A program made the translations under genes and the position numbers. A stretch of 64,000 bases of DNA, taken from assembly GCA_902825845.1 (NCBI GenBank), contig CADECM010000017.1:3077-67076 (forward strand). Reading direction: 5' to 3'. Position 1 is the stretch's first letter. Each line of letters begins with the position of its first letter. Below are positions 4,013 to 63,264 of the stretch, piece after piece. The notes under the pieces are model-generated. The model worked only from the letters and a program-made list of their open reading frames with translations. It ran no database searches and was not told the origin of the DNA. This stretch comes from an uncultured beta proteobacterium (lineage in GTDB: Bacteria; Pseudomonadota; Gammaproteobacteria; Burkholderiales; SG8-41).

Positions 4013-4540
4013 TTGTAAGTTATTGTTTTTAAACAAATTTTTTTCATGGTGCAGCAGCCCCAGCTCCAGCAGCGCAAACGCGCAGAGCCACAGCGCGGCG
4101 TCCCACGCGTCCATCCAGTCGCCGCGTGCCAGCCACACCAGTGCCAGCGCGCCGAGTCCCGTGTAGAGCAGTGCTGCAGCACGTGCAAATGCCCGCGCAT
4201 GTACGGCTGCGCGCGCCGGCAGCCGCAGCTGAATCTCCAGCACTACCACCACGCCGATCCACAGCAGCAGATTGGCGGCGTCAAGCCATTCCTTTTCCTG
4301 CACATACAGCACCGCCGTGGCGGCGATGGCAAAGGTCGCCAGCGCGCGTACGGCATGCACCAGCGTCAGTGTGCCAGGCCGCCACCGGCCGCGCGTGCCC
4401 TCGAGGGCAAACAGGATCAATAGGGCATACCACGCAAGTGACTCCAGCGCCACGCTGAAGCGCCCGGCGGCCACGTAGTACACAGTGTTGCAGGCAAGCA
4501 GTCCGAGGATGATCGGGCCCGTCAGCCGCCCGCGCGCCAT
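4007..4540 (-). CDS. hypothetical integral membrane protein
   Basis: 177 aa with 5-6 hydrophobic helices. One-nt TGATG overlap with the upstream symporter suggests co-translation. The C-terminal EKNLFKNNNLQS is encoded by AT-rich motif copy S1. Confidence 0.5.
   Translation of the reverse strand: MARGRLTGPIILGLLACNTVYYVAAGRFSVALESLAWYALLILFALEGTRGRWRPGTLTLVHAVRALATFAIAATAVLYVQEKEWLDAANLLLWIGVVVVLEIQLRLPARAAVHARAFARAAALLYTGLGALALVWLARGDWMDAWDAALWLCAFALLELGLLHHEKNLFKNNNLQS
4015..4044 (-). repeat. AT-rich A-tract/IHF-core motif copy S1
   Basis: GTAAGTTATTGTTTTTAAACAAATTTTTTT. Its reverse complement AAAAAAATTTGTTTAAAAACAATAACTTAC has the core AAACAATAACTTA, one mismatch from WATCAANNNNTTR. It sits at convergent gene ends. 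Confidence 0.6.
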
Positions 4541-12538: not shown

Positions 12539-12570
12539 TTAAAAAACTATTTAAAATCATATACTTACAT
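12539..12570 (+). repeat. AT-rich A-tract/IHF-core motif copy S2
   Basis: TTAAAAAACTATTTAAAATCATATACTTACAT, in the gap between ubiE and the Tim44-like gene. One mismatch from the IHF core. Confidence 0.6.
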
Positions 12571-15715: not shown

Positions 15716-16132
15716 TTAGGGTCCCATCTGGTGCACCAGACCCTGCCGCAGCTGTTGCAGCAATGCGACGCCCCGCGCCCGCGGCGCAGCAGATGCCTGC
15801 TGGCGCGTTCCCCAGATCGCCTGCGGGAAATGCGCGTCGTCGCGAAAGCGTGCAATCACGTGCCAGTGCAGATGCGGCACAAAATTGCCGAGACTCGCGA
15901 GATTGATTTTATCGGGCTTGAGCAGTGTCCTGAGCAGCGACTCGGCCGCGTATACCGCGCGCATGCAGTGGGCCCGGTCGGCATCGCCGAGGTCCGTCAT
16001 TTCCGCCACGTGTGCATTCCAGATCACCCGGCAATAACCAATGTAGTCGAGCTCGTCGACATAAACCACGCGCAGGTGATCATCCTGCCACAGCACGGTG
16101 TCAGTGCTTGCTTCGCACAAAACGCATTTCAT
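15716..16132 (-). CDS. HIT family hydrolase
   Basis: 138 aa with the histidine triad HLHWHVIARF. Confidence 0.85.
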   Translation of the reverse strand: MKCVLCEASTDTVLWQDDHLRVVYVDELDYIGYCRVIWNAHVAEMTDLGDADRAHCMRAVYAAESLLRTLLKPDKINLASLGNFVPHLHWHVIARFRDDAHFPQAIWGTRQQASAAPRARGVALLQQLRQGLVHQMGP

Positions 16133-16136
16133 GAAT

Positions 16137-16165
16137 ATTCAATAAAATCAATAAGTTATATAATT
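16137..16165 (+). repeat. AT-rich A-tract/IHF-core motif copy S3
   Basis: ATTCAATAAAATCAATAAGTTATATAATT. AATCAATAAGTTA is an exact WATCAANNNNTTR match. It lies in the gap between the HIT and YqaA-like genes. Confidence 0.65.
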
Positions 16166-19418: not shown

Positions 19419-19452
19419 TTAAAAAATTATTTAAAATCAATAAGTTATGTAC
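19419..19452 (+). repeat. AT-rich A-tract/IHF-core motif copy S4 (best copy)
   Basis: TTAAAAAATTATTTAAAATCAATAAGTTATGTAC: an A6 tract, a ~9-nt spacer and an exact AATCAATAAGTTA. Confidence 0.7.
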
Positions 19453-20661: not shown

Positions 20662-20804
20662 GCCCGCATCTCCGTACGAAAAAGCGACGGCGCCGATTAT
20701 AAGAGCGAACCCGTCTGCGCAGATTGACCATGGCGCGTGGAATCCCGGATAATCCCACGTTTCGTCCGCTGCATTCCGGCTCGCGAGCAGCGCCTCCCCA
20801 TCCC

Positions 20805-20832
20805 ATAAAGTAAAGTAAAATCAATGACTTAC
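20805..20832 (+). repeat. AT-rich A-tract/IHF-core motif copy S5
   Basis: ATAAAGTAAAGTAAAATCAATGACTTAC with an exact core AATCAATGACTTA. The ATG inside it is the FAH-family start codon (20824). Confidence 0.55.
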
Positions 20833-21513
20833 GCCATAGACTTTCCAGGTATCACGACCCTGCCGGTCGCCGAAAGCCATCAGGCTTTTCCGGTCGGACG
20901 CATTTATTGCGTGGGTCGCAACTATGCCGAGCATGCGCGCGAAATGGGCCACGACCCGGATCGCGAGCCGCCATTTTTCTTCATGAAGCCGCCCGATGCG
21001 ATCGTGATGAGCGGCGCCACCCTGCCGTATCCCACCATCACCCAGGATCTGCATCACGAGATCGAAATGATTGTCGCGATCGGCAAGGGCGGCAGGGATA
21101 TTCCCGTTGAAAAAGCACTGGACCACGTGTTCGGTTACGGCGTCGGACTCGACATGACGCGCCGCGACGTGCAGGGCGAAGCCAAGAAAATGGGCCGGCC
21201 GTGGGAAATGGGCAAGGCGTTCGATGAATCCGCGCCTTGCACCGCGCTCAAGACCGTCGCCATGGTCGGCCATCCCGCCAAGGGCGCGATCACGCTCAAG
21301 GTCAACGGCGTGGTGAAGCAAAAAGGCGATTTGTCCGAAATGATCTGGAACGTGCCGGAAACCATCGCCTATCTGTCGAAGATGATCACGCTGCGTCCCG
21401 GCGACCTCATCATGTCGGGCACGCCGTCCGGCGTCGGTCCGGTGCAGCGCGGCGACAAACTCGAAGGGCACGTGGACGGCGTCGGCGATCTGACCATCAG
21501 CTACGCCCGATAA
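20824..21513 (+). CDS. fumarylacetoacetate hydrolase (FAH) family protein
   Basis: 229 aa with IYCVGRNYAEHAREMG...FFFMKP...HHEIEMIVAIGK...PWEMGKAFD...GTPSGVG. Confidence 0.9.
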   Translation: MTYAIDFPGITTLPVAESHQAFPVGRIYCVGRNYAEHAREMGHDPDREPPFFFMKPPDAIVMSGATLPYPTITQDLHHEIEMIVAIGKGGRDIPVEKALDHVFGYGVGLDMTRRDVQGEAKKMGRPWEMGKAFDESAPCTALKTVAMVGHPAKGAITLKVNGVVKQKGDLSEMIWNVPETIAYLSKMITLRPGDLIMSGTPSGVGPVQRGDKLEGHVDGVGDLTISYAR

Positions 21514-21530
21514 GCGAAAGCCGCACGCGC

Positions 21531-22745: not shown

Positions 22746-22750
22746 GGATG

Positions 22751-22776
22751 GGGGGCGCAATCCCATTGCGCCGCGG
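22751..22776. repeat. REP hairpin upstream of the RAYT gene
   Basis: GGGGGCGCAATCCCATTGCGCCGCGG (stem GGCGCAAT / ATTGCGCC). Confidence 0.75.
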
Positions 22777-22789
22777 CCAAACGTAAACC

Positions 22790-23323: not shown

Positions 23324-23329
23324 TTGCAT

Positions 23330-23401
23330 GCGGCGCAATGGGATTGCGCCCTACGGCCGGCGACTTTTGCACACTGTAGGGCGCAATCCCATTTCGCCGC
23401 C
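23330..23401. repeat. inverted REP pair downstream of the RAYT gene
   Basis: GCGGCGCAATGGGATTGCGCCCTAC (23330-23354) and GTAGGGCGCAATCCCATTTCGCCGCC (23376-23401) share the 22751 unit in opposite orientations. Confidence 0.8.
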
Positions 23402-23409
23402 AAAGCGTG

Positions 23410-25098
23410 CTACAGCGCGAACCGGTCGCGCAATGCCGCGGCAACGCGGCGAATCACATCGGACCATTCGGCAATGGCGGTCTGCCGGAACAGTCGCGCA
23501 CTCGGGTACCACAGACAGTCATCGCGATCCGCCATCCAGCGCCAATCGGGATTGAAGGGCAGCATCACCCACAGCGGTTTGCCCATGGCGCCGGCCAGAT
23601 GCGCGACGCTGGTGTCGATGGAGATGACCAGGTCCACGGCCTCCGTCAGCGCGGCGGTGTCGGCGAAATCGTGTAACGCGTCGCCGAAGTGGCGAACATC
23701 CGGGCGCGACGCGAGCAGCGGCGCGTCGGTCTCGCGCACTTCCTTTTGCAGGCTGATGAGTTCGATGCCGTCGCTTGCCAGCGCCAGCGCCTCGGCCAGT
23801 GCCATGCTGCGGTTCGGGTCCGGCAGCAGGTTGCCGCTCCAGGCGATGCCCACGCGCGGGCGGGTTTTCCCGCCCAGCCGCTGCTGCCATTGTGTACTGC
23901 GCACGGCATCGGCGGCGAGATACGGCACGTCGCGCGGCAGGGTGTCGGCGTTGGCGTGAAAGGCCAGCGGCAGGCTGGTGACCGGGCAATGGATGTCGAA
24001 GGGCGGGAGCGCGGCGCCCTGCGCGATGACTTGCGTCACGCCGCCGAGAGTGGACAACAGGGATTGCAACGCGGGCGGCGCTTCCAGAATCACCGTCGCG
24101 CCCAGCGCCGCAACGCGGCTCGCGTAGCGGCAAAACTGCAGCATGTCGCCCAGCCCCTGCTCGGCATACAACAGGATGGTCCTGCCGGCGAGAGATTGCT
24201 CGCCGCGCCACAGCGGTTGCGGGTAATCGCGCCGGAAGCGCGCAACCTGATCCTGCTTCCAGCGCCACTCGTAGCCCGCCCAGCCGCGCTCGAAATCGCC
24301 CAGCAACAGGCGGCACAGGGCGAGGTTCCACTGTGCATCGGCATGTTCCGCGTCAATGGCGATCGCCTGCTCGTAGGCGGCGATGGCTTCGCCGTAGCGC
24401 CGCAGATCGGCGAGCGCTGCGCCAAGATTGCTGTAGGCATCGGCGAACTGTGGCTCCAGCGCGATCGCGTGCCGGTAGCACGCGATGGCTTCCTCGTGCG
24501 CGTTGCGCTCGGCCAGCGCCACGCCCAGATTGCACAGCGCATCCACAAAATTGCCGTCGAGGGCAAGCGCGCGGCGATAGCTGGCAATGGCTGCGTCGTG
24601 GCGGCGCAATGCGGCCTGCGAATTGCCGAGGTTGTACCAGGCCTCGGCGTAGCCGGCGTTCGCCGCGATGGCGCGTTCGAAGCTGACGATGGCTTCCTCG
24701 TGCCGCTGCAGGTCGGCCAGCGTGCCGCCGCGATTGTTGTGGGTTATCGCGTGACCGGGCCGTAATGCAATGGCGCGGTCAAAGCATTGCAGCGCTTCGT
24801 CGTGGCGCCTCAGGTTGCGCAGGGTAATGCCCAAATGGCCGTGCACCGCGGGGTCGCCAGGTGCCGTGCGCAGCGCACGTGTGAACAAATCCACCGCCTG
24901 TTGCGGACGGCCGGACTGTGCCGCGGCCAGTCCCAGCAGCGCGAGGGTGTCCGGATGATCCGGCAACTGCTGCAATACCCGCTGTCCCAGCCGCTCGCAT
25001 TCGGCAAAGTTGCCGGACTGATACGCAGCAAACGCCTGCTGCAGGATAGCGACGGGTTGGGGCACGCGCGTGAGTGTTTCGACGTAGGTTAACCGCAA
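23410..25098 (-). CDS. TPR-repeat protein fused to a GT9-like (heptosyltransferase-fold) domain
   Basis: 562 aa with ~8 N-terminal TPRs. The C-terminus has ILLYAEQGLGDMLQFCRY, RVGIAWSGN and DTAALTEAVDLVISIDTSVAHLAGAMGKPLWVMLPFNPDWRWM...WYPSARLFRQ. Confidence 0.8.
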   Translation of the reverse strand: MRLTYVETLTRVPQPVAILQQAFAAYQSGNFAECERLGQRVLQQLPDHPDTLALLGLAAAQSGRPQQAVDLFTRALRTAPGDPAVHGHLGITLRNLRRHDEALQCFDRAIALRPGHAITHNNRGGTLADLQRHEEAIVSFERAIAANAGYAEAWYNLGNSQAALRRHDAAIASYRRALALDGNFVDALCNLGVALAERNAHEEAIACYRHAIALEPQFADAYSNLGAALADLRRYGEAIAAYEQAIAIDAEHADAQWNLALCRLLLGDFERGWAGYEWRWKQDQVARFRRDYPQPLWRGEQSLAGRTILLYAEQGLGDMLQFCRYASRVAALGATVILEAPPALQSLLSTLGGVTQVIAQGAALPPFDIHCPVTSLPLAFHANADTLPRDVPYLAADAVRSTQWQQRLGGKTRPRVGIAWSGNLLPDPNRSMALAEALALASDGIELISLQKEVRETDAPLLASRPDVRHFGDALHDFADTAALTEAVDLVISIDTSVAHLAGAMGKPLWVMLPFNPDWRWMADRDDCLWYPSARLFRQTAIAEWSDVIRRVAAALRDRFAL

Positions 25099-25176
25099 GT
25101 GAGCGCGTCATTTTAAGCCAGAGCCGCGCCGGGGATACAATGCTCGGTTCAAACCGCAAACGAGGAGAAGGAAATC

Positions 25177-26166
25177 ATGCGCAAAATCAAACTCGGCAGC
25201 AACGGCCCGCAAGCGTCTGCCATGGGACTGGGCTGCATGGGCATGTCCATTTCCTATGGCAAGCCCAATGACGAGGAATCCGTCGCGACCATTCATCGCG
25301 CGCTGGACCTCGGTGTCAATCTGATCGTCACCTCAGATGCCTATGGCGCCGGCGTCAACGAAGCACTGGTGGGCCGCGCGCTCAAGGGACGCCGCGGCGA
25401 AGCGCTGATCGCCACCAAGTTCGGCAACCTCGCGCTGGGCGGTGGCGGCGCCAACGCGCTCACCGGCGGACATCCCGACTACGTGCCGCAGGCCTGCGAA
25501 AAAAGTCTGAAGATGCTGGGCGTGGATGTGATCGACATCTACGGCCTGCACCGCGTCGATGCCACGGTGCCGATCGAGGATACGGTGGGCGCAATGAAGC
25601 GGCTGGTGGAACAGGGCAAGGTGCGCTACCTGCAATTGTCCGAAGCGGGTCCGGACACCCTGCGCCGCGCGTGCAAGGTGCATCCCATTGCCGCTCTGGA
25701 AACCGAGTATTCACTGTGGAGCCGCGATGTCGAACACGATATCCTGCCCGCGTGCCGCGAACTGGGTATTGCCTTCATGGCGTATGCGCCGCTGGGGCGT
25801 GGCTTTCTCACCGCCACCATGAAAACGCTGGACGCTCTGCTGCCCACCGACCGGCGCCGTGACCACCCGCGCTTTGGTGTAGAAAATATCAATAAAAACA
25901 AAGACTTAATTGCGCCGATTGAGGCGATAGCTGCCGCCAAAGGATGTGCGCCGGCGCAGGTCGCACTGGCGTGGCTGCTGGCGCAGGGCAAGGACGTGGT
26001 GCCGATTCCAGGCACCAAGCAGCGCAAGTGGCTGGAGCAGAATTGCGCGGCGCTGGAAGTGCAGCTCGACGCAGCGGACCTGGCGAAGTTGAATGCCGCG
26101 TTCCCGCTAAACGCGGCGGCCGGCACGCGCTATCCCGAAAAGCAGTTGAAGGCGCTGGGCATTTGA
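25177..26166 (+). CDS. aldo/keto reductase
   Basis: 329 aa with LGCMGMS, DTSDAYG-like TSDAYGAG, IDIYGLHRVD and LAWLLAQGKDVVPIPGTKQRKWLEQN. Confidence 0.9.
   Translation: MRKIKLGSNGPQASAMGLGCMGMSISYGKPNDEESVATIHRALDLGVNLIVTSDAYGAGVNEALVGRALKGRRGEALIATKFGNLALGGGGANALTGGHPDYVPQACEKSLKMLGVDVIDIYGLHRVDATVPIEDTVGAMKRLVEQGKVRYLQLSEAGPDTLRRACKVHPIAALETEYSLWSRDVEHDILPACRELGIAFMAYAPLGRGFLTATMKTLDALLPTDRRRDHPRFGVENINKNKDLIAPIEAIAAAKGCAPAQVALAWLLAQGKDVVPIPGTKQRKWLEQNCAALEVQLDAADLAKLNAAFPLNAAAGTRYPEKQLKALGI
25881..25911 (+). repeat. AT-rich motif copy S6 embedded in-frame in the aldo/keto reductase CDS
   Basis: AGAAAATATCAATAAAAACAAAGACTTAATT encodes ENINKNKDLI with A/T-ending codons. Confidence 0.5.
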
Positions 26167-26170
26167 GGCT

Positions 26171-26776
26171 ATGGACGGTGACCGACACATGAAGCTCAAT
26201 CTGGGTTGCGGCGACAAGATTCTCGAGGGCTACGTCAACGTGGACGTTGCCGAAAGCCGCGCCGGCAAGCGGCCGGATGTGTTGTGCGATCTGCACCAGT
26301 TGAAGCCGTTCGATGCCAATGTGGCGGACGAGATTCTGTCGGTGCATGTGGTCGAACACTTCTGGCGCTGGGAAGTGGTGGCGGTGCTCAAGGAATGGGT
26401 GCGGGTGCTGAAACCGGGCGGGCGCATGATTCTGGAATGCCCGAATCTCAAGTCGGCGTGCGAAGCCTTTTTGGCCAACCCGGAATTGCACGCCGGTCCC
26501 GGTCAGGAAGGGCAGCGCACCATGTGGGTTTTCTACGGCGATCCGTCGTGGACCGATCCGCTAATGGTGCACCGCTGGGGCTATACGCCGCAGAGCCTGG
26601 CGGCGATCATGCGGGAAGCCGGACTCACGGCCATTCGCCAGGAGCCCGCGCAGTTCAAATTGCGCGAGCCGCGCGACATGCGCATCGTGGGCACCAAACC
26701 CGATGCCGCGCAGCCCGCACAGGGTACGGCGCAAACGCGCATCGGTGTGTCGTGGAGCACGTCCTACAAGCTGTAA
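26171..26776 (+). CDS. class I SAM-dependent methyltransferase
   Basis: MKLNLGCGDKILEGYVNVD...SVHVVEHF...VLKPGGRMILECP. The start may be 26189. Confidence 0.75.
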   Translation: MDGDRHMKLNLGCGDKILEGYVNVDVAESRAGKRPDVLCDLHQLKPFDANVADEILSVHVVEHFWRWEVVAVLKEWVRVLKPGGRMILECPNLKSACEAFLANPELHAGPGQEGQRTMWVFYGDPSWTDPLMVHRWGYTPQSLAAIMREAGLTAIRQEPAQFKLREPRDMRIVGTKPDAAQPAQGTAQTRIGVSWSTSYKL

Positions 26777-26791
26777 TGCGTTGAGGCGCAC

Positions 26792-27856
26792 ATGACAATC
26801 GCAGGGAATCCTGTTCGTGCGGACATCCTGTGGCTGGTGACGCCGGTGGTAACACCCTACCTGCACGCGGCACGGGTGGAGCAGGCGTTGCTGTCTTGCG
26901 ACCTTGCCAGCGCGCGCCTGCGCATGGGGGTTGCCGCCAGCGCCTGGCGCGCGGCGGGAGGAACGAACCGCTTTATCGAAGCGACGCAGCACCAGCAGGC
27001 TGGTGATTTATCAGCCGCGGGCATCTGCGTGGTTCCCAAATTCGCCGGCGATCTGCCGTTGGCGCCGTGGCTGGACGCCGTGCAGGCGGTGAAGCGGGCG
27101 GGTGCGCGGCTGGTGATCGATATCTGCGACTACCCGTTTCGCACCGACAAGGGCGCTGTGCCCGCGTTTTATCGCGAAGCGCTCAAGCTCGCCGATGCCG
27201 TCGTGGTCAACGCACAGCGCATGGCTGAACAGATGACGCCACATTGCCGCCAGCCGGTGACGGTGATCGAAGATGCCGTGCTGGATGAAGCCGCCACGCC
27301 GCGCTTCGCGCCCGCGGGCCGGCTGAATCTGCTGTGGTTCGGGCATCCGTCAAACCTGCGATTCCTCGAACCGTGGATTAACGTACTGATCGAACAAGGG
27401 CCGAAGCCGTGCCGTCTCACCGTGGTGAGCGAGGATGGATTCGGCGTGAAAGAGGCGGCTGCCAGCCTTAACGCACAACTGGCGCCATCGTTCGAAATGG
27501 CATTCGTGGATTGGTCGCTCGCAGCCACCCGGCGCGAACTGGAACGCTGCGACATTGCCATTCTGCCCAGCGATCCGGCGGACGCGCGCAAAAGCGGCGC
27601 TTCCGCCAATCGCCTGGCGGAAGTGTTGCAGGCCGGGCGCTTTGCGGTGGCGAGTCCGCTGCACAGCTACCTCGTATTCTCGGAGATGGCGTGGGTCGGC
27701 GAGAATCTGCTGCAGGGTCTGCAGTGGTCGCTGGCGAATCCCGAGGGGGTCATCGCACGCATCCACAAGGGGCAGGCGCTGGTGCGCGAGCACTATGCGA
27801 TGGATGCGATCGGACGGCAGTGGCGGGCATTTTTCGCCGCGCTGCCAGCGGGCTGA
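26792..27856 (+). CDS. putative glycosyltransferase (GT-B-like)
   Basis: 354 aa. Called from context and weak resemblance (C-terminal ILPSDP...SANRLAEVLQAGRFAVASP like the GT1/GT4 nucleotide-sugar-binding half). Confidence 0.4.
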   Translation: MTIAGNPVRADILWLVTPVVTPYLHAARVEQALLSCDLASARLRMGVAASAWRAAGGTNRFIEATQHQQAGDLSAAGICVVPKFAGDLPLAPWLDAVQAVKRAGARLVIDICDYPFRTDKGAVPAFYREALKLADAVVVNAQRMAEQMTPHCRQPVTVIEDAVLDEAATPRFAPAGRLNLLWFGHPSNLRFLEPWINVLIEQGPKPCRLTVVSEDGFGVKEAAASLNAQLAPSFEMAFVDWSLAATRRELERCDIAILPSDPADARKSGASANRLAEVLQAGRFAVASPLHSYLVFSEMAWVGENLLQGLQWSLANPEGVIARIHKGQALVREHYAMDAIGRQWRAFFAALPAG

Positions 27857-27859
27857 CGC

Positions 27860-29851
27860 TTACGGCTTGGCACCGTCAGCGTCAGACAAGTCGTGCGCCA
27901 GTACCGCCAGCGCCTCGCGCCAGTCGCCATCGCTTGACTGACGGTACACCGGAAACCCCGGGAACCACGGTGAAAACCGCCCTGCGGCCATCCAGCGCCA
28001 TTCTGGGGGCGCGGGCACCAGCACGCGCGCGGTTCTGCCGGCGCACGCGCGCAAATGCGTGTTGGTATTGCTGACGCCCACGTATTCGTCGATCACCTCC
28101 AGCAGCGCCAGCATGCCTTCGAGGTCTTCGTTCAGATCCGACACATCGTGCACGCGCGCGCCGGCGGCCTGTTCCAAGGCGGCGATTTCGCCGGGTAGGG
28201 GCTTGCGCTGCAGGGCGAGCAAGGTGCCGGGAAACCCCTTCAGCGCCGTGCCCAACGGCGTGATGTCGAGCGTCTTGTAGAGCAGCCACGAGCCGGCGCC
28301 CTGTTCGCTGGGCGGCGTGCCGCCGCGCCAGGTTATGCCCAGATACGGCGGCGGACCCAGCGCGGCAAGCCGGGATCGAATGCTAGCTAATTGATTTTCC
28401 AGTGATTTTATTCGAGTGCTCGGCACGGGCAGTGGCGAATACAGCGGCTGTGTCCAGGGGAAGGCCCAGCGCGCGTTGGCGCTTTCCGCGGCGCTCAGTG
28501 ACAGCGGCGCGGCGGTTTCGGTATCGCCGTTGCTTGCCGCCAGTGCATGGGGCAAGTCGCCCACCAGAATGACCGCGTCGCCCGCGGGGGGCGGCGCTTC
28601 CGCGTCGATGACGGCGGCAAGCTCGGGCAGGCGTCGCAGCAGTGACGCGATTTTGTCGCTTGCGCGGTAGGTGATGCGCGCGCCGCGCGCCACCAGTTGC
28701 CGCGCGTAGCGCAGGAAAAACAATTCATCGCCCAGGCCCTGTTCGCGCAGCACACAGATGTGCATGCCCTTGAGGCTGGACGGCAGCGTGCGCGTGAGCG
28801 TGATGCCGGGCAACTTGTTCTGGAATACGGCGAACGCCGGCCGTTGCCGGTACTGCGCCCAACCCTCGGCAAGAAAACCATACTGCAGAAACAGGGTGCC
28901 CATCAGTTGTTGCAGCGCCGGCAGTTGCGGCGTGGCAGCCGCCTGCTGCGCGATGATCCGCAGCGCGTCGTCGAACGCGCCGGTCTCGCACAGCTTGGCG
29001 GCGTAGCTCAGGGCGAATTCGGGTTGGTCGGGCGCCAGCCGTGCCGCCACACCGTAATGCCGCGCGGCCTCGTGCATGCGGCCGCGTGCATTATAGGTAT
29101 CCGCGAGCAGCGCCTGCGCCTGCGGTTCGTCTGGCGCCAGCTCGATGAGTTGTTTGCAGGCCGCTTCGGCGTGGTCGAAACGGCCCTGATCGATCAGCAC
29201 GGAAACGAGATTCATGCGCGCAGCGAGAAACTGCGGCGCCTCGCGTATGCAGTGTTCATAGGCTTGCGCCGCGTCGTCAAAGCGCTGCGCCGCGTGCAGC
29301 GTGCGGCCAAGCCCGTTGCGCGCGTCCAGAAACGCCGGTTCCAGCACCAGCGCCTTGTTGAATGCGTCAATCGCCGGCGTGAACGCGCCGCTTTCGCGCA
29401 GGACGTTGCCGAGGTTGTACCAGGCCAAAGTATGTTGGGGAAAGCGCGCCACCACCCGTTCCAGCAGCGGCCGCGCTTGCGCGAAATTTCCCTGCATCGC
29501 CAGCGCATTGGCGGCGCCCAGCATGAACGCCGGTTGCGCCGGCTCAAGCCGCTGCGCCTGGCGGAACGCGGCGCCCGACTCTTCATAGCGGCCAAGATCG
29601 AACAGCGCTTGCGCCAACGCGCCGGTCAAGCCGGCATTGCGCCGGGACTTTGCCACGGCCTGCTGCAAGTGCGGCAGTGCCTGTGCCGCGTCGCCCCCCT
29701 CCAGCAGCGCGGCGCCCAGCATCGCCAGCAACTGCGGATCAGCGGGCGCGAGTGTCAGGGCTTGCCGGTAAGCATCCGCCGCGGCAGCGAAATCGCCGGC
29801 CTGACGCGCGCGCATGCCCATATCCACGTATCGGTCAAGGATGGAAGCCAT
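27860..29851 (-). CDS. TPR-repeat protein fused to a GT9-like domain (second paralogue type)
   Basis: 663 aa with ~9 TPRs. The C-terminus has CVLREQGLGDELFFLRYA, LGITWRGG and DEYVGVSNTNTHLRACAGRTARVLVPAPPEWRWM...FPVYRQ. Confidence 0.75.
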   Translation of the reverse strand: MASILDRYVDMGMRARQAGDFAAAADAYRQALTLAPADPQLLAMLGAALLEGGDAAQALPHLQQAVAKSRRNAGLTGALAQALFDLGRYEESGAAFRQAQRLEPAQPAFMLGAANALAMQGNFAQARPLLERVVARFPQHTLAWYNLGNVLRESGAFTPAIDAFNKALVLEPAFLDARNGLGRTLHAAQRFDDAAQAYEHCIREAPQFLAARMNLVSVLIDQGRFDHAEAACKQLIELAPDEPQAQALLADTYNARGRMHEAARHYGVAARLAPDQPEFALSYAAKLCETGAFDDALRIIAQQAAATPQLPALQQLMGTLFLQYGFLAEGWAQYRQRPAFAVFQNKLPGITLTRTLPSSLKGMHICVLREQGLGDELFFLRYARQLVARGARITYRASDKIASLLRRLPELAAVIDAEAPPPAGDAVILVGDLPHALAASNGDTETAAPLSLSAAESANARWAFPWTQPLYSPLPVPSTRIKSLENQLASIRSRLAALGPPPYLGITWRGGTPPSEQGAGSWLLYKTLDITPLGTALKGFPGTLLALQRKPLPGEIAALEQAAGARVHDVSDLNEDLEGMLALLEVIDEYVGVSNTNTHLRACAGRTARVLVPAPPEWRWMAAGRFSPWFPGFPVYRQSSDGDWREALAVLAHDLSDADGAKP
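28383..28413 (-). repeat. AT-rich motif copy S7 embedded in the TPR-GT9 CDS
   Basis: CTAGCTAATTGATTTTCCAGTGATTTTATTC; the coding strand reads cga ata aaa tca ctg gaa aat caa tta gct agc = RIKSLENQLAS. Confidence 0.45.
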
Positions 29852-29860
29852 AGATCATAT

Positions 29861-29888
29861 ATAAATATTTGATAATAAGAACTTTTTT
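29861..29888 (-). repeat. AT-rich A-tract/IHF-core motif copy S8
   Basis: ATAAATATTTGATAATAAGAACTTTTTT. Its reverse complement contains an exact TATCAAATATTTA. It lies 10 nt upstream of the TPR-GT9 start codon. Confidence 0.5.
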
Positions 29889-30397
29889 ACTTAACCGCGC
29901 ATGCTGGCAGGGCGTCGGGACAGCGCACGATTGGCGCATGTTAATGGAAATTGTTCTGCATATTAGCAGTCGCATGGCGCGATTCTGCAGGCGCGTCTAC
30001 GCATGGGTGTGCGCGCTCGGGAAGTCTTGGTGCTGTGCCGGCGGAGCGCGACCGCACCAATTTTTCCGCGCGTTGCAGGGATGCGGTGCTGAAAATATGC
30101 GCATTTCATACGCGCGCCGTGTCAGCACAACGTTGAGTCGCGCGCCCTGCGCAAACAGCATCGCCCCTGTGCCAAGGTCCACACCACCACCCTTTGTCCG
30201 GCGAAAACGCCTCCGTGCGCGCGGGGGCGCGTGCCGGCTGGCGGCTGCTGCACAGACCGGCCGGCCGGCACCATTTCACACAACACTTACGAGAATTTAT
30301 GCCTAAGCGTAGTGCGCAAATGGCTGGAGTCGATCTACCGCTGATACGTAGTAACGACTTCGATTTACATCAAGTGAGTGATCGCATGCTAGTTGCT

Positions 30398-30428
30398 TAA
30401 CCTATTGAAAATAAATTAATTTTTAACT
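30398..30428 (-). repeat. AT-rich motif copy S9 (porin-1 upstream, distal)
   Basis: TAACCTATTGAAAATAAATTAATTTTTAACT. Confidence 0.5.
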
Positions 30429-43414: not shown

Positions 43415-43480
43415 TTCGCCACACGCGGCACTCGCTGTCAGGCGCCGTATGGCGATGCGGCGCTGCGTTATTACTTTATT

Positions 43481-43511
43481 GTAAGTATATGTTTTTATTT
43501 AGTTTTTATAG
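43481..43511 (-). repeat. AT-rich motif copy S15
   Basis: GTAAGTATATGTTTTTATTTAGTTTTTATAG. Confidence 0.55.
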
Positions 43512-50758: not shown

Positions 50759-51745
50759 TCAGGGCTGACGCGCCTTGGTGCTGGCGAGCTCGCGCTCCAG
50801 TTGCTCGATGCGCCGCTGCATGACCGACAAGCGCGTATTCAGCGCACCGACGTTGAAGAAGGTTTCGTTGTTCGCGGGCGCGTTGAGCACGGCGGCATAA
50901 CCCAGCCACGAGGGCTCGTATACCTTGACGTTTTTGAAGCCGAGCTTCGACAGTACCACGGCCGTTTCCGAGGCGCGCGTGCCGCTCTGGCAATACACGA
51001 TGGTTTCTTTTTCGGGGTCGAGCGCGGCGTAAAGTTTTTTCAGTTCCTGTCCGGATTTCAATGACATGCCGCTGTTGTCCGCCACCTGTTTGCGCGCGAG
51101 CTTCAACGCGGTGTCGGGGTCCGCCCAGTTCTGCTCATAAGGAATGTTGATTGCACCGGGAATGTGCCCGCCGCGAATGGCGCGGATGTCGTTGCCGCTG
51201 AATTCCGCCACGGTGCGCGCGTCGATGATCTGCACGCCCCGTTTTTGTGCGGCGAGCATTTGCGAGGTATCGATGCCGAGCGACGGATCGGGTGTCAGTT
51301 TCAGCGTCACCGGCGGCAGTCTGGGCGCGTTGGTACTGATGGTCAGCCCGGCACCACGCCAGCCGTCGATGCCGTCGTGATACACATGGCCCTGCGTGCC
51401 GCCGAAATAGCGCAGGCTGTAGAGGCCGAGGTAGGCGCTGGCGTCGCCGCGTGTCGAATACACGATGATTTCTTTCGACGGATCAATGCCCGCCGCGCCC
51501 AGTGCTTTTTCAATCTGCGCAGTCGGCAGGAAGTCTTCAGTGTTCGGATTGCGCAGTGCCCGCGCGATGGCTCCCACACTGACGGCGCCGGGAATGTGGC
51601 CTTTCTGGTAGGCCTCGGCGGCACGCACGTCCCAGATGATCACGCCGCGTTTTTGCGCTTCCAGCACGAACGCGGTATCGACGATGTTGCCCATCGCCCA
51701 TACGGGTAGGCATAAAAAATTTAATAAAAACAGATAGTTACGCAT
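50759..51745 (-). CDS. secreted tandem-rhodanese sulfurtransferase
   Basis: Start MRNYLFLLNFLCLPVWA at 51745 (the track ORF extends to 51847). Two rhodanese domains, active-site loop VYCQSGTRAS and a C-terminal coiled tail. Confidence 0.8.
   Translation of the reverse strand: MRNYLFLLNFLCLPVWAMGNIVDTAFVLEAQKRGVIIWDVRAAEAYQKGHIPGAVSVGAIARALRNPNTEDFLPTAQIEKALGAAGIDPSKEIIVYSTRGDASAYLGLYSLRYFGGTQGHVYHDGIDGWRGAGLTISTNAPRLPPVTLKLTPDPSLGIDTSQMLAAQKRGVQIIDARTVAEFSGNDIRAIRGGHIPGAINIPYEQNWADPDTALKLARKQVADNSGMSLKSGQELKKLYAALDPEKETIVYCQSGTRASETAVVLSKLGFKNVKVYEPSWLGYAAVLNAPANNETFFNVGALNTRLSVMQRRIEQLERELASTKARQP
51713..51741 (+). repeat. AT-rich motif copy S17 overlapping the rhodanese start/signal peptide
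   Basis: TAAAAAATTTAATAAAAACAGATAGTTAC; the coding strand reads cgt aac tat ctg ttt tta tta aat ttt tta. Confidence 0.55.
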
Positions 51746-53467: not shown

Positions 53468-54298
53468 TCAGGCCGTCTTTTTCCTGACCACTTGCAGCAA
53501 ATGCATGCGCCGGCTGTCGGCGCGCAGCACCTTGAACGACAGGTTGTCGAAGCTGATCTGCTCGCCGCGCTTGGGAATGCGGCCAAAGCGCTTGAGCACC
53601 AGGCCGCCGATGGTGTCGAATTCGGCGTCGTCGTAGTTTGTTCCAAAAAATTCATTAAAATCAGATACTTCCGTGAGGGCCTTGACGCGGTACTGGCCGC
53701 CGCGTTCTTCGACGATTTTTTCGTCGATGTCATCGGTGTCGTGCTCATCCTCGATGTCGCCGACGATTTGTTCGAGCACGTCCTCGATCGTCACCAGTCC
53801 GGCCACGCCGCCGTATTCGTCGACCACGATGGCGATGTGATTGCGGTTGACGCGAAATTCCTTGAGCAACACATTCAGCGGTTTGGATTCGGGAATGAAC
53901 ACCGCGGGCCGCAGCATCTCGCGCACATTGAATTCTTCCTCGCCCGCGTAGTAACGCAGCAGATCCTTGGCGAGCAGGATGCCGATCACGTTGTCCTTGT
54001 TGTCGCCGATCACCGGAAAGCGCGAGTGCGCGGTCTGGATCACCCACGGGATAAACTGTGTCGGTGATTCGCCGATGTCGATCACGTCCATTTGCGAGCG
54101 CGGGATCATGATGTCGCGCGCCTGCATTTCCGATACCTGCAGCACGCCTTCGATCATCGCCAGCGCGTCCGCATCGAGCAGGCTGCGCTCGTACGCCGAG
54201 TGCAGCAGCTGCAGCAACTGCTCCCGGTCCTCCGGCTCGCGCATGAGAAATGCGGAGATGCGGTCAAGTACCGAGGGCTTATCGTTGGCGGTGGACAT
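53468..54298 (-). CDS. corC: CBS-pair/CorC_HlyC domain magnesium-cobalt efflux protein
   Basis: 276 aa with a CBS pair (ARDIMIPRSQM...) and a C-terminal transporter-associated domain (FDTIGGLVLKRFGRIPKRGE). Confidence 0.9.
   Translation of the reverse strand: MSTANDKPSVLDRISAFLMREPEDREQLLQLLHSAYERSLLDADALAMIEGVLQVSEMQARDIMIPRSQMDVIDIGESPTQFIPWVIQTAHSRFPVIGDNKDNVIGILLAKDLLRYYAGEEEFNVREMLRPAVFIPESKPLNVLLKEFRVNRNHIAIVVDEYGGVAGLVTIEDVLEQIVGDIEDEHDTDDIDEKIVEERGGQYRVKALTEVSDFNEFFGTNYDDAEFDTIGGLVLKRFGRIPKRGEQISFDNLSFKVLRADSRRMHLLQVVRKKTA
53645..53672 (+). repeat. AT-rich motif copy S18 embedded in-frame in corC
   Basis: AAAAAATTCATTAAAATCAGATACTTCC; the coding strand reads gaa gta tct gat ttt aat gaa ttt ttt gga = EVSDFNEFFG. 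Confidence 0.6.
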
Positions 54299-54807: not shown

Positions 54808-55796
54808 TGCCGCGGTTCATGTTCTGGTGTCGTGGCTTCGGCGCTTTTGCGCGGCTTGCGGCCTTCATAGGCGTTGACAATGCGCTGCACCAGCGGATGG
54901 CGCACCACGTCTTCAGCGCCAAAGTAGGTGAATGCGATGCCGCGCACGGTTTTCAGAATCTCGTGCGCGTCGATGAGCCCGCTTTTTTGCCCGCGTGCGA
55001 GATCGATCTGCGTCACGTCGCCGGTCACCACCACGCGGCTGCCGAAGCCGATGCGCGTCAAAAACATTTTCATCTGTTCGGGCGTGGTGTTCTGCGCTTC
55101 ATCGAGGATCACAAACGCATGGTTCAGCGTGCGCCCGCGCATGAAGGCCAGCGGCGCGACCTCGATCGCGCCGCGCTCGAACATTTTGGCAACGCGGTCG
55201 TAGCCCATCAGATCGTACAGCGCGTCGTACAGCGGGCGCAGGTACGGATCGACCTTTTGCGCCATATCGCCCGGCAAAAAGCCCAGGCGTTCGCCGGCTT
55301 CCACTGCCGGCCGCACCAGCACCAGACGCTTCACTGCATCGCGCTCGAAAGCGTCCACGGCGCAGGCCACCGCGAGATACGTCTTGCCGGTGCCGGCGGG
55401 TCCGATGCCGAAGGTGATGTCGTGGGTCTGGATTTTCTTCAGGTACTCGACCTGATGCGGCGTGCGGCCCTGCAGATCGGCGCGGCGCGTGATCAGCACC
55501 GGTTCGCCGGTTGCGCTGTGCGTGCCGGGCATGTGCGCCGCCTGCACCAGACCCAGCTGCAGGTCCTCGGGATTGAGCGCGTGCGTCGCCTTGCCGTAAA
55601 ACGATTCCAGCACACGCGCGGCGACCCTGGTTTTGTCGGCCGCGCCGGTCACCGTGAAATGTTCGCCGCGGCGCGTGATCGCGACTTCGCAGGCGCTTTC
55701 GATCTGGCGCAGATTCTGGTCGAGTGCGCCGCACAGATTGGCCAGCCGCTGATTGTTGACTGGCGTAAAGCTTATATCCACATTATTGTTTTTCAA
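54804..55796 (-). CDS. phoH: PhoH-family ATPase (YbeZ)
   Basis: Walker [13 protein letters not shown] and [11 protein letters not shown]. It overlaps ybeY by 4 nt. Confidence 0.9.
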
Positions 55797-55802
55797 GTAT
55801 TT

Positions 55803-57152
55803 TCAGCCAACAGCCTGGTTGCTCCCGGTGAGTACACCGCGCAATGAATAGTGCAGCGCTTCGGTAATTGTAACCTCGGTGAAGCGATTGATCAGCGATT
55901 CGTGCCCGTCAAAATTGACCACGCGGTTGTTGTCGGTGCGGCCGGCGAGTTGCTTGTTGCCGTTGCCGGCCCGCCGCGCATGGCCCGTCACCAGCACGCG
56001 TTGACGCGTGCCGACCATCGCGCGGCTGTACCCCTGCGATTGCCCGTCGATGGTGGCCTGCAGGCGCTGCAAGCGCGCGGATTTCTCTGCCTGAGGCAGG
56101 TCATCGGGCAGATTGGCCGCCGGCGTGCCCGGGCGGCGGCTGTAGATAAAACTGAACGCGCCATCGAATTTGATGTCCTCGATCAGGCGCATTGTCGCCT
56201 CGAAATCGTCGGCGGTTTCGCCCGGAAAGCCGACAATGAAGTCGGACGAGATCGAAATTTGCGGGCGCACCGCGCGCAAACGGCGCACGATGGATTTGAA
56301 CTCCAGCGCGGTGTAGCCCCGTTTCATCGCCGCCAGCACGCGATCCGACCCCGCCTGCACCGGCAGATGCACTTGATCGACCAGCGATGGAATTTTGGCG
56401 TAGGCGTCGATCAGCCGCTGTGTGAATTCCTTCGGATGCGAGGTGGTGTAGCGGATGCGTTCGATCCCCGGAATTTCCGCGACATACTCCAGCAGCAGCG
56501 CGAAATCCGCGTCGTCCCCGTCTTCCGTCCGCGCACGGTAGGCGTTGACGTTTTGTCCCAGTAGCGTGATCTCCTGGACGCCCTGCAACGCGAGTTCGGC
56601 CACTTCACCGAGCACGCTGTCGAACGAACGCGACACCTCCTCGCCGCGCGTGTACGGCACCACGCAGAACGCGCAGTATTTGCTGCAACCCTCCATGATC
56701 GACACGAACGCGGCCGCGCCTTCGACACGCGCGGGCGGCAGGTGGTCGAATTTCTCAACTTCCGGAAACGCGATGTCCACCTGCGGCTTGCCGCTCGCGC
56801 GCCGCGCCTCGATCAACTGCGGCAGGCGGTGCAGGGTTTGCGGACCGAAAACCATGTCCACGTACGGCGCGCGCGCGATGATCGCCGCGCCTTCCTGGCT
56901 CGCGACACAGCCGCCGACGCCGATCAGTACATGAGGATTGTCGCGTTTGAATTGGCGCACGCGCCCCAGATCATGAAACACCTTTTCCTGGGCTTTTTCG
57001 CGCACCGAGCAGGTGTTAAACAGAATGACCGCGGCGTCAGCAGGGTTCCCGGTCGGCTCCAGCCCGTGCGCTGCGCGCAGCACGTCCGCCATCTTGTCCG
57101 AGTCATACTCGTTCATCTGGCAGCCGAAGGTCTTGATATAGACTTTCGCCAA
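55803..57152 (-). CDS. miaB: tRNA-i6A37 methylthiotransferase MiaB
   Basis: [16 protein letters not shown], the radical-SAM motif [11 protein letters not shown] and a TRAM C-terminus. The track ORF runs to 57263, but it would overlap the upstream gene; TTG at 57152 ([11 protein letters not shown]) is the probable start. Confidence 0.9.
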
Positions 57153-60359: not shown

Positions 60360-60390
60360 GGTTGCCGCGCTAGGTCCCCGCGGAGGTTGT

Positions 60391-60422
60391 GTAATTTATT
60401 GATTTTAAACAATTGTTTTATG
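60391..60422 (-). repeat. AT-rich motif copy S19
   Basis: GTAATTTATTGATTTTAAACAATTGTTTTATG. Its reverse complement has an exact AATCAATAAATTA. It lies ~60 nt upstream of the tRNA. Confidence 0.65.
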
Positions 60423-62591: not shown

Positions 62592-63233
62592 GTGCTCGAT
62601 AGCGCACAACGAAGGCTGTTGCCGGCGCTAACGGCTTCGGCGTTGCTGCATGTCTGGCTGGTGCAGACTGGTGACAGCGGCGCCGCGCGGCGCGTAACCC
62701 CCGCGGTCAGCGCGACGATGTCCGCCACGCTGCGTGTGGCGCATTCCGATTTTGGAGAGGCGCATGCGCAAGCGCGGCCCCACGAAGGTCCGCACGAAGC
62801 GCCACAGCCGCGGGAAATAACCGGCGGCGTTGCGGTCGCCGCGCATAGCGCCGCGGTCCGCGCGCGGTTACCGGGGCTTGCGCCTGCGCCGGTGGCAAAA
62901 AGTGCGACCGCCGAGAGCAGTGCCATGCCGGCCGCAGTCAGCGACCCCACCTACTATCCCGCGCTCAGCCTGGATGTGTACCCTCGCGCCCTCACGGCGC
63001 TGGATTTGGGCAGCCGGGCGCAAGCGGGCACGGTGCGCGCAACCGTGCTCATCGACGAAGCCGGCACGGTAAACGATGTGCGGGCGATCGAGGCGGGCGC
63101 CACCGAGGTCGAGAATGCAGCGCGCGAATTGCTGCTGCGCGCGCGCTTTACACCGGCCGCCAAGGATGGCCGCGCGGTCAAGGCACAGTTGCTGGTCAGT
63201 CTGGAGTATCGCGCAGGCGGCGGGCAGAACTAA
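62592..63233 (+). CDS. TonB C-terminal-domain protein
   Basis: GTG start and an N-terminal TM segment. The C-terminus YPRALTALDLGSRAQAGTVRATVLIDEAGTVNDVRAIE...ARFTPAAKDGRAVKAQLLVSLEY has a TonB_C-like fold pattern. Confidence 0.6.
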   Translation: MLDSAQRRLLPALTASALLHVWLVQTGDSGAARRVTPAVSATMSATLRVAHSDFGEAHAQARPHEGPHEAPQPREITGGVAVAAHSAAVRARLPGLAPAPVAKSATAESSAMPAAVSDPTYYPALSLDVYPRALTALDLGSRAQAGTVRATVLIDEAGTVNDVRAIEAGATEVENAARELLLRARFTPAAKDGRAVKAQLLVSLEYRAGGGQN

Positions 63234-63235
63234 TT

Positions 63236-63264
63236 TAAGTATCTGTTTTTAAACAACTTTTTAT
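63236..63264 (-). repeat. AT-rich motif copy S20
   Basis: TAAGTATCTGTTTTTAAACAACTTTTTAT, between the convergent TonB-like and mltA ends. The mltA stop codon lies inside it. Confidence 0.6.

Follow-up and report, generated by a model that had tools for sequence, protein, structure and literature searches.

A putative IHF-type site in the reading frame of an aldo/keto reductase gene from a GC-rich betaproteobacterial genome

An AT-rich patch of 31 nucleotides in an aldo/keto reductase (AKR) gene of an uncultured betaproteobacterium is a real copy, better than chance, of a motif that fills most of the AT-rich intergenic islands of the surrounding DNA. The stretch of DNA analyzed, 64,000 nucleotides long, is referred to here as the window. 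The patch is probably an IHF-type architectural site that lies in the AKR frame and is kept by selection on the DNA; this reading is drawn from sequence comparisons, in which related bacteria have long retained it by way of atypical codons and residues. The features that bear on it are listed in Table 1.

Table 1. Positions of the AKR gene, its AT-rich patch and the other motif copies in the window
Feature	Position	Strand	Basis or score
Host gene, aldo/keto reductase (AKR), 329 aa	25177..26166	+	Pfam PF00248 Aldo_ket_red
Putative IHF-type motif copy, 31 nt, in the AKR CDS	25881..25911	+	PWM, 30.6 bits
AAAA A-tract, in register with the A-tracts of the intergenic consensus and lambda H'	25883..25886	+	Alignment of copies; element defined in PMC1874591
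Core AAACAA-AGAC-TTA, one mismatch to WATCAR-N4-TTR (A for T, position 3)	25896..25908	+	Alignment
Motif copy at a convergent gene junction, overlapping the last codons of ORF 4007-4540(-)	4013..4043	-	PWM, 52 bits
Intergenic motif copy	12540..12570	+	PWM, 49.7 bits
Intergenic motif copy	16131..16161	+	PWM, 42.7 bits
Intergenic motif copy	19420..19450	+	PWM, 51.9 bits
Intergenic motif copy, closest strong one upstream of the AKR copy (5.1 kb off)	20804..20834	+	PWM, 33.8 bits
Intergenic motif copy, closest strong one downstream of the AKR copy (4.0 kb off)	29859..29889	-	PWM, 40.5 bits
Intergenic motif copy, convergent gap	43479..43509	-	PWM, 44.5 bits
Weaker coding-embedded copy in glyS; stronger and conserved in L164-L166	47766..47796	-	PWM, 17 bits
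Intergenic motif copy	51713..51743	+	PWM, 42.8 bits
Coding-embedded copy, antisense in corC (53468-54298, -)	53644..53674	+	PWM, 38 bits; conserved in L164-L166
Weak copy at the miaB stop / phoH start	55776..55806	-	PWM, 16 bits; conserved in L164-L167 at 24-33 bits
Intergenic motif copy, rplT / tRNA gene interval	60389..60419	-	PWM, 46.2 bits
Motif copy filling the 27-nt gap of convergent genes	63233..63263	-	PWM, 45.5 bits

The patch reads AGAAAATATCAATAAAAACAAAGACTTAATT and contains 5 G or C among its 31 bases (16%), against 62.4% G+C in the window and 63% in the AKR gene (GC3 0.76). The first-pass annotation, which was made from the letters alone, had described a patch of about 20% G+C in a gene of about 65%; the contrast holds, while the exact figures needed correction. 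Blocks as AT-rich as the patch number approximately 25 in the 64 kb and are nearly all intergenic. The patch comprises the third base of Val235 followed by codons 236-245 (GTA GAA AAT ATC AAT AAA AAC AAA GAC TTA ATT), which encode ENINKNKDLI, and both codons and peptide are as previously given. Seven of the ten patch codons end in A or T, and the TTA codon accounts for 1.6% of the leucine codons here. A programmed -1 frameshift at T AAA AAC was rejected on inspection, since this is not a perfect heptamer and the -1 frame runs for just 9 codons before a stop.

The AKR contains a full-length, uninterrupted PF00248 domain (residues 16-307, E=1e-69). The closest solved structure is perakine reductase (AKR13D1; PDB 3UYI, E=2e-91); it aligns ungapped across the patch and has ENLEKNKQI at the same place. 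In a codon-level alignment of 158 orthologues, ENINKNKDLI shows neither insertion nor deletion, and the segment (E/D)N(I/F/L)xKNxxL(L/V), which is found family-wide, aligns with it without gaps. Protein length is thus preserved, as the first-pass annotation had proposed. An insertion of foreign DNA, which had been raised there as an alternative, is ruled out by this gap-free alignment, and the patch is native sequence. The description of the patch as recoded native sequence applies in part: it is native, but more than synonymous recoding is involved because residues 239 and 242 have also been replaced. Downstream, a methyltransferase gene starts at 26171, 5 nt past the AKR stop and approximately 275 nt past the patch. 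The genome of the window is absent from the GTDB representatives, where the best identity was 84%, and was matched only in the Logan metagenome assemblies ERR3089229-32.

The motif is about 31 nt long. Fourteen intergenic copies align as an A-tract, 8 nt and then WAWCAR-N4-TTA(C); the spacer in the motif at large is about 9 nt. The motif is specific by position: the C is invariant, and the TTA lies at a fixed spacing. AAAWCANNNNNTTA occurs 15 times in the window (0.2 expected) and WATCARNNNNTTR 11 times (1.5 expected). The AKR copy resembles the copy at 4013-4043(-), as previously noted at 4015, with 14 of 17 positions identical (TAAAAACAAAGACTTAA and TAAAAACAATAACTTAC); the gap introduced in the earlier alignment is not needed. 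Gaps of all three kinds (convergent, co-directional and divergent) contain copies, in either orientation, and putative sites occur at a density of roughly one every 3-4 kb. The inter-site gaps within the window are irregular, ranging from 0.6 to 8.8 kb, and thus give no support to a strict spacing rule. We also considered a MITE or REP element, which was rejected because the seven copies examined had no consistent flanking inverted repeats.

A PWM was trained on the 14 intergenic copies of the window, which had been picked with a pattern; the AKR copy was left out. The AKR copy ranked 17th in the window, and its score is bracketed by those of the intergenic copies under leave-one-out scoring (23.6-49.6 bits). 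Of 200,000 shuffled versions of this 31-mer, 51 scored at least 30.6 bits, as did 197 out of 200,000 AT-rich 31-mers drawn at random (about 1e-3), such that the AKR copy outperforms random AT-rich sequence, the comparison suggested in the first-pass annotation. The peptide of the AKR copy has 27,648 possible synonymous encodings; the native one ranked 14th, with a codon-usage-weighted P of 4.8e-6. Against an AT-rich background, the AKR copy reached no more than 7.7 bits, which is among the lower values of the training copies (3.8-23.6).

IHF sites consist of an A-tract, WATCAR, N4 and TTR (PMC1874591). In the AKR copy, the AAAA tract lies 9 nt before the hexamer, against 8 nt in the intergenic consensus and lambda H'. 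The hexamer AAACAA (25896-25901) matches WATCAR at five of six positions, and TTA (25906-25908) follows exactly four bases past it. The mismatch, A for T at position 3, is shared with 6 of the 14 intergenic copies; the other 8 are of the AATCAA/TATCAA type. Two AA steps, at 25891-25892 and 25900-25901, are nine bp apart. We infer that they may be the counterparts of the IHF proline intercalation points, positions assigned by analogy with lambda H' (TT 27759-60, AA 27768-69).

When the window PWM was run on phage lambda, the top 3 of 3142 positions were 27603-27633, 27681-27711 and 27749-27779. These scored 8.0-9.9 bits, while the next best position scored 1.2 (mean -35, sd 11). They correspond to the attP IHF sites H1, H2 and H'; H' was confirmed by sequence, and H1 and H2 were placed relative to the annotated Int sites. 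The putative sites have the same element order and spacing as canonical IHF sites (lambda attP H', H1 and H2; consensus WATCAANNNNTTR with a 5' A-tract). They differ at hexamer position 3, where the AKR copy and approximately 40% of the copies in this genome have A, and in that the putative AKR site lies inside protein-coding sequence and is kept there across genera. To our knowledge, IHF is near-universal in Proteobacteria.

Among the 158 orthologues, the presence of the motif was all-or-none. Thirteen scored from +19.6 to +35.0 bits, 145 from -61 to -9 bits, and none was intermediate. The 13 carriers are other species-level orthologues, beyond the gene of the window itself, and the patch is therefore not peculiar to the window genome. 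In the gene tree, they belong to two clades that are not sister groups. Across these two clades, codon identity was 0.86 in the patch, the highest sliding window in the gene, and 0.53 in the gene. Of the 15 A/T-ending codons that are conserved, five are concentrated in residues 236-244. The Leu244 codon is TTA in 12 of 13 carriers and TTG in the remaining one, never CTN, while TTA is used for none of the 141 non-carrier leucine codons. Asn237 is AAT in every carrier, Ile238 is ATC where the motif needs C, and Asn241 is AAC in 12 of 13, supplying the invariant C of the core. The codon of residue 242 starts with AR in all carriers; this residue is N, S or K in site-bearing genes and L, A or V in 138 of the 145 others. 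Carriers differ from one another where WATCAR-N4-TTR is degenerate, at R, N4 and R. The patch peptide varies naturally at positions 239, 242, 243 and 245, which shows, at the level of orthologue sequences, that the segment is tolerant. This pattern of conservation points to constraint on the DNA. The gene next to AKR on the 3' side differs among the carrier genomes.

By eye, an AT island adjoins AKR in approximately 2 of 14 carriers and approximately 13 of 29 non-carriers having any AT island. Compensation, i.e. an AT island beside AKR where the site is absent, is a weak tendency seen by eye only and was not relied on.

The most probable explanation is that the patch belongs to a dense set of putative IHF-type sites, which otherwise occupy AT-rich islands between the genes of this GC-rich betaproteobacterium. 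The conserved AKR peptide E-N-I-x-K-N-x-x-L can encode the IHF elements (GAA AAT ATC ... AAA AAC AR. ... TTA). Selection appears to act on the DNA rather than on the protein, to hold minor A/T-ending codons, including the TTA leucine codon, and to have forced N, S or K at residue 242. IHF or a close functional equivalent would bind the patch and bend the DNA sharply. The benefit may be architectural or topological, for example in local nucleoid or supercoil organization or in the promoter geometry of neighbors, and would be unconnected with AKR enzymology or with any single downstream gene.

Other explanations differ in how well they account for these results. The motif may be selected as DNA and yet be bound by another AT-preferring protein, such as an H-NS-like silencer, HU or a lineage-specific factor. 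Two points are in its favor: A occurs as often as T at hexamer position 3, and every copy forms an AT-rich island within a GC-rich genome, which is what H-NS-like proteins usually target. However, the invariant C, the TTA and the fixed spacing make the motif more than AT-rich, and the PWM singled out exactly the three attP IHF sites of lambda; we regard binding by such a protein as unlikely. H-NS and HU are not known to have an asymmetric 13-nt core comparable to that of the motif. It is less probable still that the patch acts in the AKR mRNA, as an A-rich single-stranded (AAN)n tract recognized by Hfq, by RNase E or by an sRNA that controls this mRNA. AAU AAA AAC AAA amounts to four ARN triplets in a patch for which mRNA folding predicts no pairing, and the AKR gene itself is the only partner conserved across carriers. 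However, the motif occurs in both orientations to transcription, including antisense in corC and in convergent gaps, and variation among orthologues tracks the degeneracy of WATCAR-N4-TTR, not a contiguous pairing tract. Rfam covariance models matched the window only at a tRNA (60482-60555) and not at the patch, and the patch region folded no better than shuffles (z = 0.66); a structured or known RNA was rejected on these grounds.

We consider it very unlikely that the patch is a rare-codon cluster that slows translation, for example for co-translational folding before the next helix. The A/T-ending codons, the scarce TTA and the conservation of the cluster agree with such a role; however, the A/T-ending content by itself is only mildly unusual (P = 0.03), and the C-ending codons at Ile238 and Asn241, of which AAC is common, are kept where the motif needs C, beside an invariable AAT at Asn237. 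Moreover, pausing requires neither the change from L/A/V to N/S/K at residue 242 nor a match to intergenic copies. An internal promoter, or an element of promoter architecture for the gene downstream of AKR, would suit the closely spaced methyltransferase gene, and the corC and glyS copies have a similar location. It is nevertheless highly improbable. No sigma-70 -35/-10 hexamer pair with a 16-18 nt spacer matched at the patch, and no sigma-54 -24/-12 element was seen by eye downstream of it. In four carriers (L002, L003, L027 and L032), the AKR gene is followed by a convergent one, which leaves no co-directional target there. The genome L008 shares the downstream genes of the window but does not have the site. 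Since copies occur in all gap types and both orientations, sigma-70 hexamers are absent and the downstream gene varies, the motif is not a promoter. Chance or composition may also be invoked, with a Lys/Asn-rich peptide resembling an AT-rich motif or a short piece of foreign low-GC DNA. E, N, K, I, D and L do have A/T-rich codons, and ENxxKN is found family-wide. This explanation is hardly credible and is already contradicted by the tests performed: the alignment has no indel at the patch, none of the 145 orthologues whose peptide frame is essentially the same exceeds -9 bits, both the synonymous and the random AT-rich null models are rarely matched, and the patch is kept in 13 species over two clades.

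IHF binds thousands of sites, many of which are inside genes, and the E. coli genome comprises 4.6 Mb. The importance of intragenic IHF sites is usually unclear because AT-neutral genomes hide them in the background. In E. coli, the regions that ChIP-seq showed to be bound by IHF contain approximately 3000 motifs (Prieto et al. 2012, PMC3333857), a density comparable to that of the window copies. Less than 10% of the E. coli motifs are upstream of operons (PMC3333857), and most are therefore elsewhere, including inside genes. In contrast to those motifs, the putative sites in this 62% GC genome are isolated AT islands, and comparative evidence here directly indicates that selection maintains an intragenic copy even though codon and amino-acid choice suffer from it. 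The RIP/RIB (BIME-1) elements of E. coli are extragenic IHF sites flanked by REP palindromes. Similarly, the window copies are dispersed, repeated and located between genes, including the 3' ends of transcription units and convergent gaps; however, REP-like palindromes are absent around the seven copies examined, and some copies are intragenic.

Protein-binding DNA that overlaps coding sequence has precedents. Intragenic sigma-54 binding is described as conserved in E. coli (PMC4591121), and transcription-factor sites occur in coding regions (PMC9600179). The putative AKR site is of the same kind, but involves another motif and another protein, is AT-rich in a GC-rich gene and appears to alter amino acids. 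Uptake sequences (USS/DUS) are genome-wide motifs that also occur in genes, prefer tolerant spots in proteins and bias peptides. Their core is long and exact and their copies are far more numerous, whereas the window motif has a degenerate center and IHF architecture. Since the putative site is a sharp AT island here, with a clean present/absent pattern, conserved minor codons and an apparently forced amino-acid change, we regard the pattern as direct evidence that an intragenic, putative architectural-protein site is selected and shapes the protein. The case also indicates that overlapping codes of this kind are readable from sequence alone. The present loci, together with the cultivable genus Polaromonas, offer concrete material for studies on the role of dispersed IHF sites in chromosome structure or local transcription.

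A broader interpretation is possible, but doubtful: a GC-rich Burkholderiales-type lineage may maintain a dense, position-conserved network of putative IHF-type sites, written into coding sequence (AKR, corC, glyS and phoH) where intergenic DNA is lacking, tending towards the last 180-270 nt of the gene and overriding codon bias and even amino-acid preference. The AKR site seems to have arisen, or to have persisted, at identical codons in each of the two clades that are not sister groups, which would imply a locus-specific chromosomal function. If so, this function may be the management of supercoils or gyrase at the ends of transcription units, or domain organization, and it would measurably constrain protein evolution. 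The corC and glyS copies lie 180-270 nt before the end of the host gene. In the corC copy, the codons for TEVSDFNEFFGT all end in A or T. The corC, glyS and phoH-start copies are kept in syntenic relatives, and the one relative without them has GC-ending codons instead.

The first-pass annotation had read an AT-rich stretch within an aldo/keto reductase (AKR) gene as a coding-embedded motif copy. This reading was supported overall and the finding is real: the AKR gene contains a DNA element, which is under DNA-level selection within coding sequence. The patch (25881-25911, AGAAAATATCAATAAAAACAAAGACTTAATT) has a G+C content of 5/31 (16%) versus 62.4% for the window; its host gene has a GC content of 63% and a GC3 of 0.76. 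Approximately 25 blocks in the 64 kb are as AT-rich, nearly all of them intergenic. The codons previously assigned to the patch were correct, with Leu encoded by TTA, which accounts for 1.6% of the Leu codons in the window. The closest solved structure to AKR is perakine reductase 3UYI (E=2e-91). The surroundings of the gene (19864-29851 and 36243-38699) encode TPR-domain and glycosyltransferase-like proteins, and portions of this neighbourhood, porins included, reappear around AKR orthologues in related genomes.

Motif copies and neighbouring genes in the window
Feature	Position	Strand	Remarks
Motif copy in convergent gap	4013-4043
Motif copy in convergent gap	43479-43509
Motif copy in convergent gap	63233-63263		fills a 27-nt gap
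Aldo/keto reductase (AKR) gene	25177-26166	+	329 aa, full-length, PF00248 E=1e-69
GT61 gene near AKR	21237-22745
TPR protein genes near AKR	23410-25098; 27860-29851
TPR-GT41 gene near AKR	36243-38699
Methyltransferase genes near AKR	19864-20661; 26171-26776
Motif copy in corC (ORF 53468-54298, -)	53644-53674		antisense; 38 bits, stronger than AKR copy
Motif copy in glyS	47766-47796		weak in window, 16-17 bits
Motif copy at miaB stop / phoH start	55776-55806		weak in window, 16-17 bits
Three tandem porin paralogues	30742-31974; 32883-34112; 34945-36150		first paralogue has a confirmed Porin_4 domain
AT-rich regions before the porins	30380-30745; 32515-32885; 34590-34950		~200-350 nt each

The AT-rich islands of the window have one motif in common. 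The pattern AAAWCANNNNNTTA occurs 15 times (0.2 expected), including the AKR copy at 25895-25908, and there are 11 matches to the textbook IHF consensus WATCARNNNNTTR (1.5 expected). Alignment of 14 intergenic copies revealed approximately 31 informative positions (tAAAAAAttatTTAA-AAWCAAtaAcTTAc), in the order A-tract, 8 bases, WATCAR-like hexamer, 4 less constrained bases, and TTA. As a cross-check, the attP region of phage lambda (NC_001416 27000-28600) was scanned with a matrix built from the intergenic copies of the window only. The best 3 of 3142 positions were 27681-27711 (9.9 bits), 27603-27633 (8.5 bits), and 27749-27779 (8.0 bits); the fourth scored 1.2 bits, in a distribution with a mean of -35 and an sd of 11. 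The hit at 27749-27779 is the H' site, the sequence of which (AAAAAAGCATTGCTTATCAATTTGTTG) is located at 27750. Judging from the Int sites annotated in the lambda record, we take the other two to be H1 (between P1 and P2) and H2 (adjoining the core). The canonical IHF site comprises WATCAAnnnnTTR, AA steps 9 bp apart, and a 4-6-A tract in the 5' half, and the window motif has the architecture of its four recognition elements (PMC1874591). Since the architecture matches and the matrix picks out the lambda attP sites, the element is of the IHF type by these sequence measures. Another AT-binding protein may own the motif, which we consider unlikely.

A promoter identity was rejected for the copies because convergent, co-directional, and divergent gaps are all occupied, in both orientations, and a RIP/BIME-like identity because REP-like palindromes are absent from the flanks. 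At the first copy in the table, ORF 4007-4540(-) ends in HHEKNLFKNNNLQS before its stop; its last ~13 codons run through the copy and share bases with the stop codon of 3056-4012(+), a convergent gene. The lack of a stop in that frame of the motif may be the only reason for this C-terminal tail.

The AKR copy was excluded from matrix training. Its score of 30.6 bits places it 17th in the window and among the training copies, which span 23.6-49.6 bits when each is left out in turn. Against an AT-rich background it scored 7.7 bits, at the low end of their range (3.8-23.6). Its resemblance to the intergenic copy with which it had been compared was confirmed without gaps (TAAAAACAAAGACTTAA versus TAAAAACAATAACTTAC, 14/17 identical). 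It also scored better than random AT-rich sequence: 197 of 200,000 random 31-mers with training-site composition scored at least as high, and when the patch itself was shuffled 200,000 times, 51 of the shuffles did so. VENINKNKDLI has 27,648 possible encodings, with scores up to 32.5 bits; the one in the gene stands 14th among them, and the probability of such a score under the codon usage of the window is 4.8e-6. The A/T-ending codon content by itself is no more than mildly unusual (P = 0.03); what carries the signal is the choice of bases, including TTA for Leu.

We collected orthologues of AKR from species-representative genomes (80 loci) and metagenomes (80 loci). In a codon-level alignment, protein length was kept, with an indel in none of the loci. 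ENINKNKDLI aligns with a segment found throughout the family, (E/D)-N-(I/F/L)-x-(K/R)-N-x-x-L-(L/V), which reads ENLEKNKQI in the plant enzyme 3UYI. Scores of the homologous 31-mers were bimodal: 13 orthologues (carriers) at +19.6 to +35.0 bits, 145 (non-carriers) at -61 to -9, and no score between these ranges. The site also occurs on three conspecific metagenome contigs, L081-L083. Carriers, with genes of 59-65% GC, share GAA AAT AT(C/A/T) AAT AAA AAC A.. ... TTA. Where two carrier clades have the same amino acid, codon identity is 0.86 in the patch versus 0.53 in the whole gene, and the patch is the top sliding window of the gene. One A/T-ending codon is used by at least 8 of 10 carriers in 15 columns, 5 of which lie within residues 236-244.

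The codon details track the DNA motif, not the protein. Asn237 is AAT in every carrier, while Asn241, the source of the invariant C of the core, is AAC in 12/13. Leu244, which supplies the TTR of the motif, is TTA in 12 carriers and TTG in one; among 141 Leu codons of non-carriers, TTA is absent and CTG (86), CTC (25), TTG (20), and others are used. The motif requires AR after CA, and this is supplied by residue 242, which is N, S, or K in carriers (AAT, AGT, AAA, AAC; the codon always begins AR) and L, A, or V in 138/145 non-carriers. Carriers differ from one another at the R, at N4, and at the last R of WATCAR-N4-TTR. As judged from its codons, the family K-N-x-x-L (AAR AAY NNN NNN YTN) is a pre-adapted host for AAAAC-AR-NNNN-TTR, which explains how the protein can accommodate the site here. 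A non-carrier AKR, L085 (78% identical), keeps GAA AAT ATC at codons 236-238; the remainder of its patch is GC-rich (-30 bits). Upstream of this gene, at a distance of 0.6-1.5 kb, are two strong copies (33-35 bits) in intergenic DNA. This patch may be a remnant of a site or a precursor state.

An origin of the AKR patch by chance or from foreign DNA is contradicted by the null models, the gap-free alignment, and the conservation among orthologues. Action of the conserved element in mRNA is disfavoured, since the motif is found in both orientations and its variation follows the IHF degeneracy pattern. The patch was unmatched in Rfam, is predicted to be unpaired in mRNA, and is surrounded by no mRNA structure signal (z = 0.66). 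A translational pause at rare codons is likewise disfavoured, since the common codon AAC is kept where the motif needs C and the amino acid changes at residue 242. A promoter for the downstream gene is disfavoured because the neighbours of AKR are not conserved. In the window, AKR is followed by a methyltransferase gene in the same direction, and in L005 by a GT41 gene, likewise co-directional. The gene after AKR in L002 and L003 is a TPR-glycosyltransferase running convergently. L018 has a homologue of window ORF 26792-27856 at this place, and L027 and L032 have one of window ORF 39727-40410, again convergent. L008 has the same downstream genes as the window, yet lacks the site. A sigma-70-like promoter was sought at the patch and not found.

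The AKR patch is best filed as a putative IHF-type site, a known kind of element. IHF probably binds and bends the DNA at the patch, and the benefit would be architectural or topological rather than the control of one fixed target gene. ChIP-seq in Escherichia coli identified approximately 3000 motif occurrences in IHF-bound regions, with under 10% lying upstream of operons (PMC3333857); therefore, intragenic IHF sites at such density have precedent. The clear evolutionary footprint is what stands out in the present case. The site is an unusual variant in being embedded in, and constraining, protein-coding sequence across genera and in being one of many such sites that are densely spread over the genome of a GC-rich lineage.

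In a bootstrapped neighbour-joining tree with patch columns masked, carriers formed one clade with the window, L001, L002, L003, and L005 (81% support) and another with L018, L020, L026 (Polaromonas), L027, L032, L100, L111, L112, and L121 (96%). The two were grouped together in 0 of 100 replicates. The window AKR shares 76-83% identity with many non-carriers but just 70-74% with the second clade. Three histories would each fit: independent gain of the site twice at the same codons, a single gain with patch transfer, or at least five losses of an old site. Genomes of carrier loci tend to have AT-rich intergenic islands, whereas most non-carrier loci have none.

Other genes also contain copies. 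The corC codons (TEVSDFNEFFGT: ACG GAA GTA TCT GAT TTT AAT GAA TTT TTT GGA ACA) were reported as A/T-ending in 12/12, although the first listed reads ACG. Four relatives (L164-L167), obtained via CorC homologues (86-91% identical), share miaB-phoH-ybeY-corC-lnt-glyQ-glyS synteny at 59-60% GC and hold strong intergenic copies (39-44 bits). The corC and glyS copies are kept in L164-L166 (corC at 10628, 10628, and 10625, respectively), with variation again at N4. L167 lacks both and uses TTC, AAC, GAG, and CTT at the equivalent residues, with GC-ending codons in corC. The phoH-start copy is present in 4/4; this copy and that in glyS are stronger in the relatives (21-33 bits), with position kept. 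The AKR, corC, and glyS copies each lie 180-270 nt upstream of the host stop codon, an observation (n=3) rather than a rule.

Each upstream region of the porins has two oppositely oriented copies separated by 69-92 nt. Immediately 5' of each start codon there is also a GC-rich leader that is conserved (TTCGTCCTTTAC...GTAAGGCGAA.CGCTCGCGAGGA...) and may be a shared 5'-UTR structure. A tiny putative ORF at ~43640-43705(-) would encode 20 aa with Lys/Ala repeats (MAAKKKAAKKKVAKKKAAKK) beside a motif copy in an otherwise non-coding 640-nt gap.
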